Assembly: GCA_030018135.1 (NCBI GenBank) | Contig: JASEGJ010000001.1 | Location: 74,991 to 138,990, forward strand | Direction: 5' to 3' | DNA: 64,000 bases | From: Candidatus Hodarchaeaceae archaeon | Lineage (GTDB): Archaea > Hadarchaeota > Hadarchaeia > Hadarchaeales > Hadarchaeaceae | In this document: positions 30,599 to 49,470 of the stretch, piece by piece | Layout: every line of letters begins with the position of its first letter | How positions within the stretch are numbered: the stretch's first letter is position 1 | The notes under the pieces: generated by a model | Database searches by the model: none | What the model was told of the DNA's origin: nothing | What the model saw: the letters and a program-made list of their open reading frames with translations, nothing else | Made by a program: the position numbers and the translations under genes

Positions 30599-32880
30599 AT
30601 GAACCCCATAGACAAAATTGCTAAACTTTGCGAAAGGAGGCCCCATCTCGTCATCGCTACCGTGGCAATTGTCACTTTGCTCCTCCTTCCGGGAATCCCA
30701 AAAATTACCACCGAAACTAAAATGGAAACGTTCATACCCAAAGACTATCCATCGATAATGGCCCTTTCCGATGTGGAGAAAACATTTGGCGGGATGCGAT
30801 ACGAATCCATCTTGGTTGAGACAAAAAATGGCAAGGTAACAGATGCCGGTGCCATAAAATCGCTACTTGGCCTGCAACGAAAAATCCTTGTAGAACCCGC
30901 TTTGAAAGGGTATGCTGTCGAAGTCGAAAGCTATCTAAATTATCTTTTCCCATATATCATGGAAGATAACCAGCTACTGCCCGATGATGAACTTGAGCTG
31001 GCCGTGCAATCCTTTCTTTCCGGGCCGAGCGGCGCAAGTGTGGTCGGTCGATGGATAACCCCAGATCAAAAAATCTGCTTAATGAATGTAAACGTGGGGG
31101 CACACCTAAAATCGCGCGAAGCTGTGGAGAAAACTCAGTATTTTGAGAACTTGGTCAAAAGCTACGCGGCTGAGCATGGGATTTTTGATGCATCTATTAC
31201 GGGCGGGTACTCGACCTCCAGAGATATGCAAAAAATTATCGAAGAGGACAACCGAGTCTTGTTGCCCGCTGCTGTGGCAATGATCATCGCAATTTTGGCG
31301 TTAGCATTTCGTCGCGTTACCGATGTCGTTTTACCGTTTGTAGTCATTGCCCTAGCGGCGATATGAGTCCTCGGTATGATGGGCCATTTAGGCATCGTAT
31401 TCACGACCGTAGCCGTCGCGGTCCTCCCCCTCTTAATGGGGATAAGCATTGCCTACACTATACACATCATCAGCCGCTACAACGAGGAGAGGTCGAATGG
31501 TAAAAATGCGGGCGAGGCCGCCGTATCGAGCATAAAGAACATGGGCACTGCCGTATTCCTAACGGCTGCGACGACCGCCATAGGCTTTGCCTCCTGGCTT
31601 ATCTCGGACCTGCCGCCGCTCCGCGATTTCGGCCTGCTCTGCATGTTGGGTATAATGTTCAGCTTTGCCCTCACCGTAACGCTACTGCCGGCGTTTTTGG
31701 TCATTCGAGACGGGAAAAAAGGGACCAAGAAAACCAAGGGGACGCAAAGGCTGGGCAGGTCGGCGCTGGACAGGGGATTAGTGAGGATCGCGACAATGAC
31801 CAAACTTCACCCCAAGGGGGTTGTCGCAGTAGCTGGCGCGCTCACGGCAGTTGCGCTGGTCCTGACAACTCAAACTACTACTGCCATCTCATTTGAGGAA
31901 CTCCTGCCAAGCGGGGTCGAATCAATCAGGACCAGCGATGAAATCAGGCAAAATTTCGGCGGTCAGGATCTCATCATGGTTCTGGTCAGGGGCGACGCGA
32001 CCGATCCCAAAGTCCTCGAGACGATGGTATGGCTGGAACAGCATGTTCGCTTGGATAACAGAAATGTTAAAGGCGAGAGGGTTTACATAACGCGCGCGTA
32101 CAGCGTTGCCGACATGGTGTTGATGGCCAGCGCAGGCGCCATACCGCGGACCTCGCAGGAGGTGGCAGCGATCCTTGAAAACCTCAGGCACCAAACACCC
32201 CACGTCGACAGGCTCGTGACCTCCGATAATAACAAAACCATCGCGCTGTTCCACTGCGACGCCCGAAGCGATGCGGAGCTTAAGCTCACCGCCGACATCG
32301 TCAGAGATTGGATCGGCCAGTTGCCTGATAACAGAGCCGAATTCGTGGCCACCGGGACGCCAGTCGTGGCCGCGGATCTGCTCTCGAAAATACCGCAGGA
32401 TGCCCTTAACACCACTATGATGGCGCTCGCCCTATGCGCGGTGGTGCTGTGCATCGTGTTTAAGAGCATTGGAATGGGCTTAATTGCCATGGTGCCGATG
32501 GGTTTGGCACTGACGTGGCAGTTCGGCACATTTTACCTGCTCGATGTCCCCCTTAACGTGATCACGGTGCTGATCTCCGCTCTCCTCGTAGGCATCGGCA
32601 TAGACTTCTCAATCCATACTACCCACCGCTATCTGGAGGGGGTGAGAGATCGCCAGCTTAAACCGGAGGGGGCTGTGCACGCTACCGTGCTCCACGTTGG
32701 CAGGGCGCTCCTAGCAGCTGCTGCGACCACCTGCGGTGCCTTCGGTTTGCTTGCGCTCTCGAGGGTGCCAATAATGAGACCTTCGGCAGCATGACAGCGC
32801 TCGCGATACTCTACTGCATGCTCGCGGCGCTGCTGGTTTTGCCCTCGCTACTTGTCGCCTATGCGGGACGGAGGATGGTT
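30599..32880 (+). pseudogene. MMPL/RND-superfamily transporter interrupted by in-frame TGA (31367-31369) and a frameshift near 32780
   Basis: ORFs 30599-31366 and 31376-32794 share one frame and read through TM helices (…VVIALAAI*VLGMMGHLGIVF…); the authentic C-terminal TM helix (FGSMTALAILYCMLAALLVLPSLLVAYAGRRMVN) is encoded in a different frame after 32784. Confidence 0.55.
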
Positions 32881-33338: not shown

Positions 33339-33461
33339 TGGTGGGGTCGCTGGGATTCGAACCCAGGTCCCTGGCTTTTTTGCCCGACCTTGTCCCATTT
33401 GGCAGACCATTGAGAACTTGATCTTAAGCCAGAAGGATAGGCCAAGCTACCCCACGACCCC
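33339..33461 (-). tRNA. tRNA gene with about 45-nt insertion (intron) in anticodon region and encoded CCA; isotype unresolved
   Basis: acceptor GGGGTCG/CGACCCC + A + CCA, D-loop AGCTTGGCCT, T-arm CTGGG-TTCGAAT-CCCAG, anticodon stem CTGGC...GCCAG separated by about 52 nt; no canonical anticodon loop could be assembled by hand. Confidence 0.5.
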
Positions 33462-34817: not shown

Positions 34818-34925
34818 TGGAGCCCCGGGTGGGCTTTGAACCCACGACCTACTGATCGCTTGCCGCCTGGTTACAAGTTTCGACAGCTCACCTTCAGTCG
34901 CTCTACCAGGCTGAGCTACCGGGGC
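34818..34925 (-). tRNA. tRNA gene with about 31-nt insertion in anticodon loop region, encoded CCA; isotype unresolved
   Basis: acceptor GCCCCGG/CCGGGGC + T + CCA, D-arm GCTC-AGCCTGGTA-GAGC, anticodon stem ACTGA...TCAGT, variable AGGTC, T-arm GTGGG-TTCAAAG-CCCAC. Confidence 0.55.
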
Positions 34926-37094: not shown

Positions 37095-37213
37095 TGCCGG
37101 GGGCGGGACTCGAACCCGCGATCTCAGGATTTCTCACATCATGGTTGATCAGCACTCACAGCCAGTGGTTTGGGCTATGAGTCCTGCGCTTTAACCAGCT
37201 AAGCTACCCCGGC
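37095..37213 (-). tRNA. tRNA-Met(CAT) elongator-type with 46-nt intron at canonical 37/38
   Basis: acceptor GCCGGGG/CCCCGGC, D-arm GCTT-AGCTGGTTA-AAGC, anticodon stem CAGGA/TCCTG, exon loop CTCATA|…|A gives CUCAUAA; intron 3' TGAG pairs with C32-A35 and leaves an AAA bulge (BHB-like). Confidence 0.8.
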
Positions 37214-42950: not shown

Positions 42951-43047
42951 GCGGCCGTGGTCCAGCCTGGTTAGGGCGTTAAGCGCCGCCAAAGGACCCA
43001 GGCTCCCCAAGCCTGTGGCGCGGGTTCGAATCCCGCCGGCCGCACCA
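42951..43047 (+). tRNA. tRNA gene with about 20-nt insertion near the D-arm/anticodon-stem junction, encoded CCA; probable Gly(CCC)
   Basis: acceptor GCGGCCG/CGGCCGC + A + CCA; D-stem GTCC with two candidate 3' partners (GGGC before, GGAC after the insertion); anticodon arm CAGGC-TCCCCAA-GCCTG (C at position 33); T-arm GCGGG-TTCGAAT-CCCGC. Confidence 0.55.
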
Positions 43048-43094: not shown

Positions 43095-44023
43095 ATGAAG
43101 ATGAGCATGCTATTCATGGTAGTACTTCCGCTTGCCATCTTGCCGTGCGTCCTAGCTGGCGTCCAAACTACTGGGGCCTCGTCGGTTGCGCAAGCGGCGG
43201 AGCCAAGCACGGTTAAAGCTGGCGTGTGGGTCATCTCGTTGACCCCGCTGGCGGGACTTTCACGATCGATTTTTACCTCTGGTTCAAGTACGGTGAGATA
43301 GAGCCAAATATCGAGTTTCTAAACGGGTCTCCATCGAGGTTCGAAAAGATAACCGAAAGGGAAAATTACATAGAATACCGCGTCAAGGGCATATTCGTAA
43401 AACCCCTTGATTTTAGGAACTTTCCGTTCGATGAGCACACTTTAACCGTCGAGCTGGAGGACAAGGAGTTCGATGCTTCCGAACTCGTATTTGAACCTGA
43501 TCTGGACGAAAGCGGGATGGACCCAGAATTGGCGATCGTTGGCTGGAGCGCCGAGGATTTTCGGATAAAATAAGAAAGATCACGCGTACCCGGGCGAAAA
43601 TTTCTCCCGGCTTATATTTGGGGTAAGAATTTACCGATCGAAGCTCTCGGCCATGTTCAAGAACTTTCTCCCCATTATCGTCATCACGTTGATATCCCTC
43701 TTGACCTTCGCGATCTCCGTTAAAAACTTCGGGCAGAGGGTTGGTATATGTGTGACGACTTTGATGTCCGCGGTTGCCTATCACCTAGCGGCACTCGGTG
43801 CGCTGCCGCCCTTAGGATACCTCACATTGCTTGATAGGGTCATGCTCGTCGTTTACACCCTGTTCTTGTACAATTTGGCGGTCTCCGTTCAAGCGATGAG
43901 ACTCGTGGAGGGGGAAAGGTGGCGGCGGCTGAAAAGTTTGAAACGAGGATGCAGAACTTCATCCCAGCATTGGTCGCGGTGCTATGTTTGGTTTACATAG
44001 GGTTTATCGGCTTTTTCGCCTGA
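43095..44023 (+). pseudogene. pentameric ligand-gated ion channel (prokaryotic Cys-loop / GLIC-ELIC-like), split over four frames by at least three frameshifts
   Basis: signal peptide (43095-, frame 0); ECD with TFTIDFYLW and Cys-loop-equivalent FPFDEHTL (frame 2, 43226-43573); M1-M3 with PIIVITLISLL and YLTLLDRVMLVVYTLFLYNL (frame 0, 43569-44000); M4 EKFETRMQNFIPALVAVLCLVYIGFIGFFA* (frame 2, ends 44023). Confidence 0.55.
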
Positions 44024-44430: not shown

Positions 44431-44587
44431 TAATCAGTTGAGATGGTGGACGAAAAAAAGCTTGCAATCCCCCCCATTGTGTGGCAGACTCGCTCCAAAT
44501 GACTCAATGTCGAGCGCCCCCATGAAGGTTTATGCCGACACCGTTTTCTCTTTATAAAGTGCTTTCGGCCAACGGCCCGGCGGGGTT

Positions 44588-44983
44588 ATGAACGAAAGCG
44601 GCCAACTGATGGGTGTCCCTATAAAGCTCGTGATGGCGCTCGTCATAGGCACCATGACGATGGGCATATTGATGCAGTTTGTCGGCACGGCCGAGCGAAC
44701 TATACTCAGGGACATGAAGGTGACATTTCCTCGCACAACCAGCGACAATCTGACGGTTAAGGTCTTCGATGCCCAAAGCGGGGATGCCTTAGGCGATGCA
44801 ACTATTGTGGTCAAGTACCCCGGAGGCATGAAGGCCCACACTTGCGGCGAGAGCTCAAATCAGAACAGGTTTAGCATACCTATGAATGGCGCCGATTGCG
44901 TCGTCGTGACCGTGCGGGTAACCCGCCACGGCTACATCCCGTGGGAAGGGGAGGTCGCGGTGACGGCAGCCAAGAAGAAGTAG
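44588..44983 (+). CDS. pilin-like protein with class-III-like signal peptide (first gene of putative operon)
   Basis: MNESG/QLMGVPIKLVMALVIGTMTMGIL: short polar N-terminus then about 22 hydrophobic residues; TATA-like TTTATAAAG about 40 bp upstream. Confidence 0.45.
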   Translation: MNESGQLMGVPIKLVMALVIGTMTMGILMQFVGTAERTILRDMKVTFPRTTSDNLTVKVFDAQSGDALGDATIVVKYPGGMKAHTCGESSNQNRFSIPMNGADCVVVTVRVTRHGYIPWEGEVAVTAAKKK

Positions 44984-44990
44984 TGATAGC

Positions 44991-45413
44991 ATGGAACTGC
45001 GGTGCGATATCGTGGGCATCGAGACCTTACCAGTGACATTGTTGCTCGGCACGATAATCGGCGCTTGTGCGCTCGGGCTCGGGGCCAGATGCCTAACCAA
45101 CTTGCAAAGCCTGACGGAGAAACAGCGAGCGACCGAGAGCTTTGATGCCCTTGTGGAGCGGGCAACGGCAGTCGGCATGGGCGGTGCTGGTGGCAGGCAG
45201 CGGGTCGAACTTGACCTGCCCAACAGCAAGATAGTCTGCCGCGGAAGGCTCCTACAGCTTGTTTTGGACGATGAGATACGAAGGAGCAAAATCATGCCCC
45301 TGCCGATCCTCGTCGATGGCAACGATGCATGGGAAATCAATACCGGGTACTACGAGATCGAACTCCGCCGAGATAATTTTGGCAATTGTCTCCTAAAGCT
45401 GCGGAGGCTTTGA
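44991..45413 (+). CDS. pilin-like protein (N-terminal hydrophobic helix)
   Basis: MELRCDIVG/IETLPVTLLLGTIIGACALGLGA. Confidence 0.4.
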   Translation: MELRCDIVGIETLPVTLLLGTIIGACALGLGARCLTNLQSLTEKQRATESFDALVERATAVGMGGAGGRQRVELDLPNSKIVCRGRLLQLVLDDEIRRSKIMPLPILVDGNDAWEINTGYYEIELRRDNFGNCLLKLRRL

Positions 45414-45841
45414 CGATGAACCAGCATGGATTGCTCATGGATTTTCTATTTTGCAAGATCGGCGTGGCGCTCGCGGCGATATCGTTGATCGGCGCTTCCA
45501 TGGCAATGTCATCAAGCTTTCAACGCGAGACAGGACGGGATGAGCTAGCGGCGGTGGGAGATACTATTGCACGCGCAATTTTTGCGGCTGATGCCATGCC
45601 CGGCGAGGTGCAACTTGTGCGCGAACTTCCACCCCTTCGACAACAGTTTAGGATTACAATCGTTGGCGCTCGCAGCGACGGCATGCAAGTTGTCCACGTA
45701 CTCGTGGACGGTCGAAGTCAGGATAGACGCGTAATAATGGTGGGGAACAAGGTCAACGGCGGCGAGTTTGAGTTCAGCTACAGCAACCCCTCGATTGTTA
45801 TGGTGAGCAAAAATGAGCAAATTTTCTTGGGGTTGGTCTAA
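45386..45841 (+). CDS. pilin-like protein (N-terminal hydrophobic helix)
   Basis: …NQHG/LLMDFLFCKIGVALAAISLIGASMA; overlaps upstream gene end. Confidence 0.4.
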   Translation: MSPKAAEALTMNQHGLLMDFLFCKIGVALAAISLIGASMAMSSSFQRETGRDELAAVGDTIARAIFAADAMPGEVQLVRELPPLRQQFRITIVGARSDGMQVVHVLVDGRSQDRRVIMVGNKVNGGEFEFSYSNPSIVMVSKNEQIFLGLV

Positions 45842-46294
45842 TTGGATCAACTTTCGGTTGGCGAGGACCTTTTCGCGACGCTCATCGTTGCCAGCCTAGC
45901 AGTACTGTTCGTTGCGGCGCTAGTGCACTCCTACCATGTGTACGCTGAGCGAAAAAATGCCCAAGAGGGCTTAAGCCTAGCGCTCGACATCGCGAACCAG
46001 CTTAAAAATGAAGTCTTAGCCAAGCACGAGAACTATGTATGCCCCGGACTCATCAACCTAAAGACATTCGACAAGGAACTTTCAAGATACCACCAACTGC
46101 TCTTTAAACAGGGGATAAAGCTACGCGTCGAGGTTAGAAAGCTAGACGGTGAGCTCGCCCTAGCTTATGGCGCCAAAGCCAGCCAGCTCGGTCGATATTT
46201 CTCGCCCCCATGCTCCGTGAGCCTTCCTGTCACCATTGCCGAAACGCCCGCATCCCGCTCGCTCGGTGAGCTGATAGTGTGGGTTTGGAGGTAG
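45842..46294 (+). CDS. pilin-like protein (N-terminal hydrophobic helix)
   Basis: MDQLSVG/EDLFATLIVASLAVLFVAALV. Confidence 0.4.
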   Translation: MDQLSVGEDLFATLIVASLAVLFVAALVHSYHVYAERKNAQEGLSLALDIANQLKNEVLAKHENYVCPGLINLKTFDKELSRYHQLLFKQGIKLRVEVRKLDGELALAYGAKASQLGRYFSPPCSVSLPVTIAETPASRSLGELIVWVWR

Positions 46295-46298
46295 CAAA

Positions 46299-46958
46299 AT
46301 GGACAGACGCGGTCAAGGGCATGTGGTCGACATGTTGGTTTTTGCGTTGATGGTAACTCTCGCGTGCTCGCTCTTAGTTAAGGCAAGCCCGGTTGAGTCT
46401 CGGGCGATAAACGATCGCTACGCCGCCAACCTCGCACAAAGTATATTGTTGACGCTTCAAAACGCGACTGCGGACGAGTTCGGGGGCCTTGAATATTCGC
46501 TTGATCTTCGGACGGCTTGGGGGCCTAGCGAGCGCAAGTTAAAACACAAAACACTGGCACAGCTGTTGGTTGAGGATGCGCTTTGCAACCTGCGCGCAGA
46601 GATCAACGGTCGTGAAGTCGCGGGGCTTAGGTCGAGCCAAGATCTAGACAATAAAGTCCACAAGTTCTTGACTGACGTACTAAGCAAGCTGATCGGCGGG
46701 CGTTTTGACTACAGCTTGACGGCGAGGGCGGAATCCTTAAAAATCTCGTCAACTGTTCGAGTTTATTTTGAGACCTCGATCAAAAGCTTGAGCGGCGAGG
46801 AGCAGCGGCAGCAAATTTGTTCAGAAACGATCGCGATGAGTTTGCCCATCCCCAAGCAGGAGTTAGTTGTGCGCCTCCTGAGCATAAATCCGATCGAGCT
46901 CTTTCAACTTGAGCCGGAAATTGCCGTTGAAATAACTCTCAGCTTGTGGTCGAGATGA
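46299..46958 (+). CDS. pilin-like protein with canonical class-III signal (RRG/Q)
   Basis: MDRRGQGHVVDMLVFALMVTLACSLLV: KR-G-Q followed by hydrophobic stretch, the archetypal prepilin peptidase (PibD/FlaK) substrate pattern. Confidence 0.5.
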   Translation: MDRRGQGHVVDMLVFALMVTLACSLLVKASPVESRAINDRYAANLAQSILLTLQNATADEFGGLEYSLDLRTAWGPSERKLKHKTLAQLLVEDALCNLRAEINGREVAGLRSSQDLDNKVHKFLTDVLSKLIGGRFDYSLTARAESLKISSTVRVYFETSIKSLSGEEQRQQICSETIAMSLPIPKQELVVRLLSINPIELFQLEPEIAVEITLSLWSR

Positions 46959-48214
46959 TGGAAAAGCACGGCTTCATGCCGTTCAGCGCAGCGGGTTTTC
47001 TCATTGTGATGCTAGTTGTCGCGATGATCGGGCGTGCGGCGTGGTCGCAACATCATCAAACCATGAACGCGATCGATGACATCAACAGCATGTCGCTTTT
47101 AACCGTTACCGCGGGCGTTCAAAACGATCTTCGACATGTGGCGCGCTACGCGGTTTACAGGGCGCTCTGGCAGGTCTGCAAGCATGCTGATGACTACAAA
47201 AACGATGAGGCGCGTGTACAAGCGATTGAAAAGCTTGCAGCTGAGTACTTCCTCAAACATGCCGAAGGGCTACCGCAGGCCTACATTAGTGCGCGCGTCA
47301 GGCTTGAGCTTCCCGACGGCCAGCCATCCTTTAATCTGCGGCAGGCAGAAAACGGATATGTGCTCGCCAGGGTTGAATTGCCCGGGCAGGCACGCATAGG
47401 GATCAGTTCCCTCGACAACGGTACCAAGCTCACGCTTTCCTGCACTGGTTTCGAGGTTTGGGTTGATTGCCGCTATTTCCTGTTGCAGGAACGCATGCGC
47501 AAGTTTGTCGATGATATCGATGAAGTTTGCTCAAGTTGGATGCGCGCCGAGTATGCTGCGGCCTGGGGACAGGCGTTGATGGGCCAGGTTTGGCTAAACG
47601 ACAAACGCAGCAGGGCCCTTTTCGAGCTGGCTTGGAAGAATCACGAGCTTAATACCTTTGGGTCGGCCGACTATCTTGAAATGCCCACATCGGCGGAGTT
47701 TAACATGAGCGCACCTTCGGACATCAACTTTAACTCAAACATTGATATCGCGCCGGTGAGCGTTGCCGACGCACAAAGGATAGAGGGCCATATCGACCGC
47801 GCCCTCGCAGCCCTTCGCCGTGCGGAGGTGGGGTTGAAAAATGCCGAGGGATCGATCGAGGTGGCGCTCGACATCGTTCGAAAAAATTCCATTCTGTCAG
47901 AAAACTTGGATGCCAAAAGCGCCATGCTCGGCAACGTGAAAAAGGAGCTAAACAAGGCCATTGAAACGCTAGAAAAGGCTGGGAGCGACGTTCGAGAAGT
48001 TGGCATGGAGTTTGAGCAACTCGTCGCATTCGTAAAAGGTAAGGCCGAGGGTAACCTGTTGATGAAATTGCTCTATCGTGGCTTGACCTCCTCCGACGGC
48101 AACTACCCGCCGCTGGCGCAACGCGTCTCTTTGGGCCTTGCGGGGGTTGAGGACAAATTAATGGGACTGTCGGTGGCAAATGAACAATATGCAGAAGCTC
48201 AGCGCATCGGATAA
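46946..48214 (+). CDS. large (422 aa) pilin-like / pilus-associated protein with class-III-like N-terminus and C-terminal coiled coil
   Basis: …EKHG/FMPFSAAGFLIVMLVVAMIG then about 390 aa soluble region ending in heptad-rich segment. Confidence 0.4.
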   Translation: MVEMMEKHGFMPFSAAGFLIVMLVVAMIGRAAWSQHHQTMNAIDDINSMSLLTVTAGVQNDLRHVARYAVYRALWQVCKHADDYKNDEARVQAIEKLAAEYFLKHAEGLPQAYISARVRLELPDGQPSFNLRQAENGYVLARVELPGQARIGISSLDNGTKLTLSCTGFEVWVDCRYFLLQERMRKFVDDIDEVCSSWMRAEYAAAWGQALMGQVWLNDKRSRALFELAWKNHELNTFGSADYLEMPTSAEFNMSAPSDINFNSNIDIAPVSVADAQRIEGHIDRALAALRRAEVGLKNAEGSIEVALDIVRKNSILSENLDAKSAMLGNVKKELNKAIETLEKAGSDVREVGMEFEQLVAFVKGKAEGNLLMKLLYRGLTSSDGNYPPLAQRVSLGLAGVEDKLMGLSVANEQYAEAQRIG

Positions 48215-48986
48215 CTTGGGCTCGCTCGAAGACCACCTCGTCGAGCTTCACGAGGACGTCAAATTTCAAGTGTGGAGCTTGCTGGTCTCGCCCTCGCCAA
48301 AATACTGCGAGGAATATCAAGAATACCCTGACCCAGAAGTTTACAACTATGAAAGGGATGGTCCATCGTCGATCGTCCGAAGCGCCAATGTTTACATCCT
48401 CAGCGAGCCGGATGGTACGATAAGCGCATTAAGAGCAACCTTGTTGGATACAAGGAACAATTTGGAAAAAGTGGAAAGCGTAGCTAAAAACCTCGAACGA
48501 AAGCAAGAGGACTTTAAAGGCGCAGAGATAAGCGAGGAGTTAAGACAATCCCCCGTGGGTTCAGACCCAAGGTTCCTCGATGGGCTCGACCGCGAGTGGG
48601 TGTACGAAACCATACCGCCGCCCCCGATTCGAAAACAACCCGGGCTTTCGGTGTTTCATGATTTTAGCATCAAAGAAGTAAGATACGAAAGAAGGGACCC
48701 GCTGGGTTGGCTCGATGCGGGCGCGCCACCGACGCCGATACCCCTTTGGTTTATAGGCGTGACCCTGTACTGGGCACAGTGGGAGGTTACGCTCGAGCTA
48801 GAGGACAAGCCTGTCGAGGAGATATTTGACTTCGAAAATCCAGTGCTGCCCAGGTCGCTGCTTGAAGGGTCCAACGGTTTAACAATCGTTCATAAGCCGT
48901 TGGGGTACCGCTTTGAGGTGCCCCGCGAGCGGTTCAGCTTTACCTTGTTGATCGTCAGCCCGACGCCATTTGAAATCGATGCCTAA
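48180..48986 (+). CDS. hypothetical soluble protein, last gene of pilin-like operon
   Basis: 268 aa, no N-terminal TM; overlaps upstream gene by 35 nt. Confidence 0.35.
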   Translation: MNNMQKLSASDNLGSLEDHLVELHEDVKFQVWSLLVSPSPKYCEEYQEYPDPEVYNYERDGPSSIVRSANVYILSEPDGTISALRATLLDTRNNLEKVESVAKNLERKQEDFKGAEISEELRQSPVGSDPRFLDGLDREWVYETIPPPPIRKQPGLSVFHDFSIKEVRYERRDPLGWLDAGAPPTPIPLWFIGVTLYWAQWEVTLELEDKPVEEIFDFENPVLPRSLLEGSNGLTIVHKPLGYRFEVPRERFSFTLLIVSPTPFEIDA

Positions 48987-49011
48987 AAGTGCGCGCAAGA
49001 TCTCGAGGCCC

Positions 49012-49470
49012 TCAGAAGCCGGTTGCCCGCTTTCTACTACGGGCTTTTGTCTCAACCTGAACCATAAGCGCCTGGAGCTCCACGACACGTTCGTTGAGCT
49101 TTTCGAGTTCGTTTCCGACGAGTTGCAGTTCCCGCGAAAGCGCATCGATCCGGGCGAGCAGCGCAAAACGTGCGTCATCAAGCGCTTCTCTGAAGATTTC
49201 CCTAACTTCGGCTCCCAACCGTGATGTTCGCGGCTCAAGCTTGGCCTCTTGAAATTCGGCCGAAACGCGATCGATGAGCAAGTGAACCTGCTCGCCGGGC
49301 AGGCCTATGCCGGTCAGCGTGTCATATACCTCATCGTCGGCGAAGCCCAAGCGTTTCATGGACCTGATTACGTCCGAAGCTGCTACACCGCCATTTGATT
49401 TTGGCACACTTCCCGTTGAGCCTTTAGTCTGGAAAGGTTTAAAAACGGAAAACTTGCGGCGAGGCAACAA
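49012..49470 (-). CDS. hypothetical coiled-coil protein (convergent to pilin-like operon)
   Basis: 152 aa, C-terminal heptad-rich segment (LSRELQLVGNELEKLNERVVELQALMVQVE). Confidence 0.3.
   Translation of the reverse strand: MLPRRKFSVFKPFQTKGSTGSVPKSNGGVAASDVIRSMKRLGFADDEVYDTLTGIGLPGEQVHLLIDRVSAEFQEAKLEPRTSRLGAEVREIFREALDDARFALLARIDALSRELQLVGNELEKLNERVVELQALMVQVETKARSRKRATGF

Follow-up and report, generated by a model that had tools for sequence, protein, structure and literature searches.

The 64,000-nucleotide (nt) stretch of archaeal DNA analysed here, referred to as the window, covers positions 74,991–138,990 of contig JASEGJ010000001.1 (assembly GCA_030018135.1). The region spanning 44588–48986 on its plus strand probably contains the subunit cassette of an uncharacterised type IV pilus-like filament in uncultured Hadarchaeota, with the motor encoded in trans. 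This reading is based on the order of the genes, the conservation of their leaders, the phyletic spread of the cassette and the proximity of ATPase and platform genes to it in relatives. Together these made it reasonably probable, in our judgement, that the products of the cassette are the structural subunits of a type IV filament (TFF) system found specifically in Hadarchaeota and the related MSBL1.

Six adjacent genes share a prepilin-like leader

Seven plus-strand open reading frames (ORFs), named P1–P7, were found in this region with spacers of 7, 2, 0 and 4 nt and overlaps of 4 and 35 nt at two junctions (Table 1), and the adjacent genes P1–P6 are taken to be translationally coupled. On the Kyte-Doolittle scale averaged over 19 residues, each of P1–P6 contains one hydrophobic segment, which lies at the extreme N-terminus (maxima 1.97–2.81) and is preceded by a Gly at residue 5–9, and no hydrophobic segment was found in P7 or in P8, the convergent gene that follows the cassette. 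An earlier description made from the letters of this DNA, the first-pass annotation, had reported six tightly packed plus-strand genes, each with a polar leader ending in Gly followed by a hydrophobic helix, and both the ORF spacing and the hydropathy confirmed it. The TATA-like box that it placed before the first gene was also found, as TTTATAAA at 44551. The position of this element is conserved, as TTTATAA(A) or TTTAAAA is seen at the same distance from the P1 start in most orthologous loci, and it presumably acts as a promoter element. Between the box and the P1 ATG (44560–44587), the stretch CCCAAAGCCTCGGCGGGA is common to many orthologues, with GGCGGG located 5–10 nt before the start codon, and this shared sequence could be a ribosome-binding or regulatory element.

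Archaeal class III signal peptides have a short, mostly basic leader that ends in a small residue (G, A or S) and runs directly into about 20 hydrophobic residues at the extreme N-terminus, and a leader ending in Gly followed by one hydrophobic helix was seen in all of P1–P6. In the window itself the leaders follow the canonical pattern only loosely: they read ESG↓Q (P1), IVG↓I (P2), QHG↓L (P3), SVG↓E (P4), RRG↓Q (P5) and KHG↓F (P6), the arrow marking the predicted cleavage site, and at position −2 P1–P4 carry S, V, H and V, which departs further from this pattern than the family consensus does. The consensus was M-x-E-[KR]-G/A↓QLMGVPIKLV for P1; [KR]-G↓[VI]ESLPVVLLLG for P2; [RKQH]-G↓LLxDFLxCKIG for P3, with G5, F10 and K14 invariant in 26 relatives; LSV-G/A↓EDLFS for P4, with E8, D9 and L10 invariant (n = 30); [KR]-G↓xGxxxD for P5, with G5 nearly invariant and D11 (+6) invariant in 32 relatives; and [KR]-G↓FMPF for P6. 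The Gln at +1 in P1 and in the P5 of the window resembles that of substrates of the peptidase EppA. Across the orthologues, position −1 was occupied by G in 21/23 sequences of P1, 39/39 of P2, 38/46 of P3, 26/30 of P4 (and A in 4), 55/56 of P5 (A in 1) and 94/101 of P6 (A in 3), which corresponds to 83–100% per family. Ala was the sole recurring alternative, found in some P1, P4, P5 and P6 sequences, and the other exceptions at this position were mostly mis-registration by the alignment anchors. By the same orthologue counts, K or R at −2 was the majority in the P1, P2, P3, P5 and P6 families.

When the six families were compared with each other by hhalign, no similarity beyond the leader and no paralogy was found. 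Because this profile-profile comparison finds no other similarity, the leader alone appears to be the shared feature, and one that is under selection. Judged from these alignments, a leader kept under selection in six unrelated proteins is the expectation for a common pathway of processing and assembly, and P1–P6 are predicted to be cleaved by a prepilin peptidase.

The cassette is conserved across Hadarchaeota and occurs in MSBL1

The large protein of the cassette was detected in 30 species-representative genomes, 28 of which are labelled Hadarchaeota, Hadesarchaea, Hadarchaeales or Hadarchaeum, while one is another metagenome-assembled genome (MAG) with a “Hodarchaeaceae” label. The order P1-P2-P3-P4-P5-P6/7 followed by the convergent P8 was kept in a locus with the same flanks as the window (L002) and in one with wholly different flanks (L003), and two further genomes, a single-cell one from MSBL1 and one divergent MAG, show the same cassette order. 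As gene order and N-terminal signatures recur in 30 genome loci and 80 metagenome loci, the arrangement noticed at first pass is not a chance pattern. Relatives of P1 were present in 80 metagenome loci. An exhaustive HMMER search of 1.84 billion representatives returned only 218 proteins in total for all six families, a narrow set, and apart from a few MAGs whose lineage labels are generic or absent, the distribution seen was limited to Hadarchaeota and MSBL1.

At NCBI the source MAG goes under an Asgard name, “Candidatus Hodarchaeaceae archaeon”. Because nearly all of the named cassette relatives are Hadarchaeota or Hadesarchaea, the source organism is probably a hadarchaeon and its name a mix-up of Hod- and Had-. 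Two contigs of MAG CSMAG_2768 (L010 and L020) carry one copy of the cassette each, which reflects either a duplication or the binning of two strains into one MAG. That the cassette came from a mobile element or a virus was considered and dropped, because the GC content matches the surroundings (it is even, at 51–58%, across the window) and the cassette is stable and lineage-wide.

P6 and P7 form one large subunit that is split in the window

The first-pass annotation had counted seven pilin-like proteins. This number was reduced to six, as its sixth protein (422 amino acids, aa) and the soluble seventh are one gene in 42 of the 45 P6 homologues, where they form a product of 604–708 aa; the other three are the protein of the window itself and two short entries, at least one of which is partial. 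The orthologue P0002 (677 aa, 86% identical to P6), which is the closest among the full-length relatives, aligned by tblastn in frame 2 as far as nt 48169 and, from ~48171 onwards, in frame 3. Because of this change of frame, P6 and P7 are read as one gene, split in the window by one extra base (+1 frameshift, 48169/48170). The same split was found in a separate Logan assembly of run SRR23186779, with gene calls of 419 and 265 aa. The P7 part carries many of the invariant positions of the large subunit. Two separate genes, of 394 and 357 aa, encode the halves in the distant lineage L034, and for this reason a two-polypeptide form of the large subunit may work.

A gene with a weak Neur_chan_memb match, possibly encoding a protein of the pentameric ligand-gated-channel type, lies adjacent to the cassette on the plus strand (43095–44020) and is broken into three ORFs, with changes of frame near 43577 and 43920 when it is compared to the orthologue in L002, which is intact and has 311 aa. 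Together with the P6/P7 split, 5 kb of DNA thus contain three or more frame breaks. Because this neighbour is damaged likewise (43238–44020), the P6/P7 split and the breaks beside it may be either sequencing error or real gene decay.

P1 is the candidate main subunit and P5 a probable distant DUF7284 relative

The first-pass annotation had found no recognisable family for the mature domains, and this was nearly right. No significant Pfam or NCBIfam match was obtained for the proteins of the window, P2 included, except a sub-threshold DUF7284 match in P5, and two families appeared among their relatives. When 142 family members, a pooled set of the families, were scanned singly against Pfam, CarboxypepD_reg matched 10 sequences (best E 5.4e-6) and DUF7284 matched 10 sequences at E up to 0.01 (best E 7.6e-9), and DUF7266 gave one weak match. 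The CarboxypepD_reg matches were attributed to relatives of P1 because P1 shows a matching beta-sandwich pattern in its sequence. The P5 of the window scored 18.9 bits against DUF7284 (PF23955; E 1.6e-3), which is below the gathering cut-off of 27 bits, and three P5 cluster representatives carry a precomputed PF23955 match. Because these two observations agree, the ten DUF7284 matches were attributed to relatives of P5, making P5 a likely distant DUF7284 relative. In a tblastn search of plasmids with a DUF7284-positive member only chance matches were seen, and the haloarchaeal megaplasmid pil loci were not found.

P1 is the most conserved protein of the cassette, with 71–78% identity in most loci, and in the same loci the identity was mostly ~35–60% for P2–P5 and 36–48% for P6. 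Archaeal pilins are in general built of a helix followed by a beta-sandwich. P1 was taken as the candidate for the main, repeating subunit because it is first in the operon, small, composed of a helix and a predicted beta-sandwich, and by far the most conserved. The AlphaFold2 model of P5 (confidence score, pLDDT, 86) shows a helix and an alpha/beta domain with a four-stranded sheet, and the model of the large subunit was made on the full-length orthologue P0002. When the PDB was searched by sequence, P6 and the profiles of P1, P5 and P6/P7 retrieved coiled-coil or chance matches only.

Putative motor genes occur near the cassette in some relatives

Pfam scans of the larger ORFs and motif scans of the 64 kb showed no T2SSE ATPase, T2SSF platform or A24 peptidase, in agreement with the first-pass statement that the window lacks a pilus ATPase and platform, and none was found in the ~8 kb past either end of the window. 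The GxGD-K motif of A24-like peptidases was likewise missing from the window; its matches in related loci were short ORFs that overlap P1–P2 in another frame, and they were judged spurious. A FlaI/TadA-type ATPase (Pfam T2SSE) and/or a T2SSF-type membrane protein was present 2–9 kb from the cassette in seven related loci, and two versions of this motor were distinguished.

In the first version (L040, L045 and L088), a small coiled-coil gene precedes a T2SSE ATPase of ~730–740 aa, which is directly followed by a membrane protein of 594–601 aa. In these loci, and in L041 and L087, the motor genes seen lie upstream of P1 on the same strand, with 2.1, 4.0 or 8.8 kb between the end of the platform gene and P1. 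The ATPase matched Pfam T2SSE with E 1.1e-19 and the NCBIfam models of TadA and FlaI with E ~1e-39; its best PDB relatives were the GspE of A. fulgidus (2oap; E 1.8e-32) and then CpaF and FlaI. Its match to the bindosome BasE model (E 2e-19) was far below the cut-off of that model. The T2SSE domain begins near residue 320 of 732, leaving a long N-terminal extension, and ATPase relatives in the 90%-identity cluster of the L088 copy are annotated at NCBI as type II/IV secretion system ATPase of Hadesarchaea. The polytopic protein has 8–9 predicted transmembrane segments, and its L088 copy scored 32.4 bits for T2SSF against a cut-off of 25.2. In L041 and L087 only the platform gene was seen, cut at the locus edge. 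The second version, found in the divergent loci L032 and L112, is an ATPase/platform pair 27% identical to the first and located 2.6 kb upstream in divergent orientation or ~3 kb downstream. The small coiled-coil gene before the ATPase showed a weak DUF7310 match in three loci, including the partner of the second version; DUF7310 and DUF7284 are probably both haloarchaeal families.

The linkage of motor and cassette is loose, yet recurrent in two or three different arrangements. Euryarchaeal pili are modular, and ATPase/TadC modules serve pilin sets encoded in trans (Makarova et al, PMC4858521). The cassette is a further illustration that archaeal pilin sets often lie apart from their motors, and for this reason a pilin operon that appears as an “orphan” is not anomalous in itself.

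A model of filament assembly and its alternatives

In the favoured model, each of the six preproteins would insert in the membrane via its N-terminal helix, and a class III peptidase of the A24 family, encoded elsewhere, would remove the leader of 4–8 residues after the conserved Gly/Ala. A FlaI/TadA-type ATPase and a T2SSF-type platform would pull the mature subunits from the membrane, and these would polymerise with their N-terminal helices forming the filament core. P1 would be the repeating subunit, P2–P5 would be low-copy subunits starting or capping the filament, and P6/P7 (~680 aa) would be a large terminal subunit, possibly adhesive. Cleavage, polymerisation, the role of each subunit and the choice between a long pilus and a short pseudopilus are what we infer here. 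The first-pass annotation had suggested a minor-pilin or pseudopilin-type set for a surface filament or secretion structure. The presence of ATPase or platform genes near the cassette in seven loci speaks for the filament or secretion part of this suggestion, and the limitation to minor pilins could not be established, as P1 looks like the main subunit.

Several results weigh against this model. A simplified FlaFind core motif, [KRDE][GA][ALIFQMVED][ILMVTAS], used as a regular expression and not as FlaFind itself, matched none of the six window proteins P1–P6. Many P1 and P6 orthologues (KGQL, RGFM), judged by eye, fit it, and the class III reading made at first pass is strengthened by the Gly at −1 and the frequent K or R at −2 of the orthologues. 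In the P4 family, K or R was never seen at −2. Pilin_N (PF07790), DUF361 and N_methyl (PF07963) matched neither the window proteins at E up to 1 nor the 142 members of the pooled set at E up to 0.01. A comparison with solved structures, a check proposed with the first-pass annotation, was made for the AlphaFold models of P5 and P6/P7, and no pilin or pseudopilin fold was matched; the fold evidence is neutral with respect to a pilin-like build. As to the motor, besides its absence from the window and from the DNA past its ends, linkage was seen in only 7 of 105 loci (34 of the 105 had at least 5 kb upstream of P1), and in every case unrelated genes, e.g. for a PHP-domain protein, an acylphosphatase or a histone deacetylase, lie between motor and cassette. 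Finally, the strong conservation of P1 is unusual for an exposed major pilin.

This last point bears on an unlikely alternative, in which the same leaders and motor would build a short pseudopilus or membrane-proximal machine for secretion, uptake or positioning of surface proteins, comparable to the pseudopilus of type II secretion or to the Sulfolobus bindosome, with P6/P7 as its cap. P1 is more conserved than is usual for a pilin exposed at the surface, and the set of one conserved small, four small and one large subunit resembles GspG with GspH–K. Functionalised, non-filament roles are described for the TFF systems of archaea (10.64898/2026.04.22.720090; PMC4858521), and the hadarchaeal ATPase matches the BasE model, as given above. 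Genes for substrate-binding proteins or secreted enzymes with class III leaders were, however, not found near the cassette, and the sequence data do not separate a long filament from a short one.

It is distinctly less likely that P1–P6 remain uncleaved, as a signal-anchored (bitopic) complex at the outer face of the membrane that has nothing to do with type IV filaments and functions, for example, in the envelope, in sensing or in anchoring of the S-layer, the nearby ATPase being coincidental. Such a complex would agree with the failure to match a pilin family or fold, with the missing basic residue before the Gly of P4 and with the fact that most loci have no ATPase within reach. However, plain signal anchors would not be expected to keep, in six unrelated families and across deep divergence, a near-invariant Gly at the border of the helix with Ala as the sole recurring alternative. 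The motor also recurs near the cassette in two or three independent arrangements, although a neighbourhood of 20 kb is, by our estimate, only ~1.5% of a genome of 1–1.5 Mb. Some weight is left to this explanation, the main rival of the filament model, because the searches gave no match to a pilin family or fold and cleavage of the leaders is a prediction.

Very unlikely is a complex of minor pilins only, for priming or for the tip, with the major pilin specified by a small solitary gene at another place in the genome: in archaea, the genes of major pilins are often solitary and away from operons (PMC4858521), and a 60-aa ORF on the MSBL1 contig L036 (570–752), 2 kb upstream of the cassette, has a weak Pilin_N match and may be a fragment of a PilA-type pilin, but no PilA-type N-terminus was seen in the window or in the 118 loci examined, and the position and conservation of P1 fit a principal subunit.

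Comparison of the cassette with known systems

Archaeal type IV pilus-like systems that combine several class III subunits with a motor encoded in trans, the kind proposed here, are known. The six subunit families of the cassette appear to be undescribed in the literature searched, and so does their confinement to Hadarchaeota and MSBL1, as we found there no discussion of hadarchaeal pili and nothing on DUF7283–DUF7288 or PF23955. Among the closest known systems are the euryarchaeal clade 2/system 2 pili of the Haloferax volcanii PilB3/PilB4 type (Makarova, Koonin & Albers 2016, PMC4858521; Sivabalasarma & Albers 2026 preprint), in which several proteins with class III leaders, one of them large and possibly adhesin-like, are likewise found together, the ATPase has a long N-terminal extension and the pilin sets are often apart from the ATPase/TadC module. 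Unlike these pili, the cassette shows no Pilin_N match, none of its six families was tied to the arCOG pilin families of PMC4858521, its P1 has a CarboxypepD_reg-like domain, a conserved convergent P8 gene follows it and its distribution is limited to Hadarchaeota, MSBL1 and few MAGs.

The Epd pili of Methanococcus maripaludis (EpdA–E, EppA) resemble the cassette in that several small pilin-like proteins are jointly essential and the assembly genes lie elsewhere (PMC4858521), and differ from it in their DUF361 signature, their sequence and their dedicated peptidase, no gene for which was seen near the cassette. In bacteria, FimU-PilVWXE with PilY1 and GspH-I-J-K also combine four or five small leader-bearing subunits with a large terminal protein and are thought to prime and tip the fibre (PMC4858521). 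No homology to these sets was found: Glu is the +5 residue in none of the P1–P6 families (P5 has an invariant Asp at +6), N_methyl was not matched in Pfam or NCBIfam, and the large protein of the cassette has a pilin-like leader of its own. With the Sulfolobus bindosome (Bas), the cassette shares class III leaders on surface proteins, which in the bindosome are non-filament ones, and a FlaI-like ATPase, but P1–P6 contain no substrate-binding-protein domains and the BasE score was far below the cut-off.

Against this background, it is a tentative suggestion, which we hold as possible but doubtful, that the cassette together with its ATPase/platform pair represents a separate archaeal type IV filament subsystem, confined to Hadarchaeota and MSBL1, with six new subunit families and lying outside the classes recognised at present (archaellum, Aap and systems 1, 2 and 4A–I).

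Features of the cassette and its surroundings

P8 lies directly downstream of the cassette, in convergent orientation, in 25 loci including that of the distant lineage L034, with 39–67% identity, and it accompanied the cassette wherever this was checked. The sequence SDVIRSMxRxGFxxDEIYDVLTGxGLPGEQ at its N-terminus resembles a three-helix “MGF” motif of the UBA type and is followed by a coiled coil; no significant match was found in Pfam or NCBIfam. Judged by synteny alone, P8 may be a cytoplasmic partner of the cassette system. On the Logan contig P3 was called with 141 aa, the length from the ATG given in Table 1.

Table 1. Coordinates of the cassette genes and associated features in the window.
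Feature	Position	Strand	Description
TATA-box-like element TTTATAAA	44551–44558	+	~30 nt upstream of the P1 ATG; read in the DNA
P1, 131 aa	44588–44983	+	Leader MNESG, then QLMGVPIKLVMALVIG... helix and predicted small beta-sandwich
P2, 140 aa	44991–45413	+	Leader ...DIVG, then IETLPVTLLLG helix; pilin-like small subunit
P3, 141 aa from ATG 45416	45416–45841	+	Leader MNQHG, then LLMDFLFCKIG helix; ORF reaches a TTG at 45386
P4, 150 aa, TTG start	45842–46294	+	Leader MDQLSVG, then EDLFATLIV helix; no K/R at −2
P5, 219 aa	46299–46958	+	Leader MDRRG, then QGHVVDMLVF helix; likely distant DUF7284 relative
P6, 419 aa, N-terminal part of large subunit	46955–48214	+	Leader MMEKHG, then FMPFSAAGFLIV helix, alpha/beta domain and helical bundle
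+1 frameshift between P6 and P7	48169–48171	+	tblastn of P0002 and reading of the DNA
P7, 265–268 aa, C-terminal part of large subunit	48180–48986	+	End of helical bundle and conserved beta-rich domain; no signal sequence of its own
P8, small soluble convergent protein	49012–49470	−	N-terminal helical motif containing “MGF” and coiled coil; ~112–125 conserved residues

Other observations were made in and around the window, which is archaeal and contains a 5S rRNA. An MMPL/RND-type transporter gene (30599–32794, plus strand) is split by an in-frame TGA at 31364–31366 with the frame unchanged after it; a nonsense mutation, a genuine pair of genes and recoding are the possible explanations. The cumulative GC skew has its minimum near 36–38 kb, where the gene orientation switches from minus to plus. 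A Cdc6/Orc1 gene is located just past the right end of the window (L037 5958–7148), and a replication origin may lie nearby. Four tRNA matches of 94–120 nt (33342–33461, 34821–34925, 37095–37213 and 42951–43047) are long, which suggests that they contain introns, and ARAGORN recognised just one, to which it gave an odd anticodon. To the left of the window, the gene for the RtcB RNA ligase (L038 9318–11879) contains an intein with a LAGLIDADG domain, and a separate LAGLIDADG ORF and an archease gene are located just upstream of it.

Significance for the biology of Hadarchaeota

Hadarchaeota are widespread uncultured subsurface archaea, and their cell surface is essentially uncharacterised. The cassette was present in every Hadarchaeota lineage sampled, and a likely role can now be proposed for six families of hypothetical proteins, of which a single one has so much as a distant relative in Pfam. 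The analysis provides concrete candidates for the filament subunits and for the motor, together with predicted cleavage sites of the leaders. If the system is indeed a separate subsystem, it would have an unusually conserved core in P1 and a new terminal protein of helical bundle and beta domain in P6/P7, and a non-pilus device, such as a pseudopilus or a structure for uptake or attachment, would be possible in these archaea.

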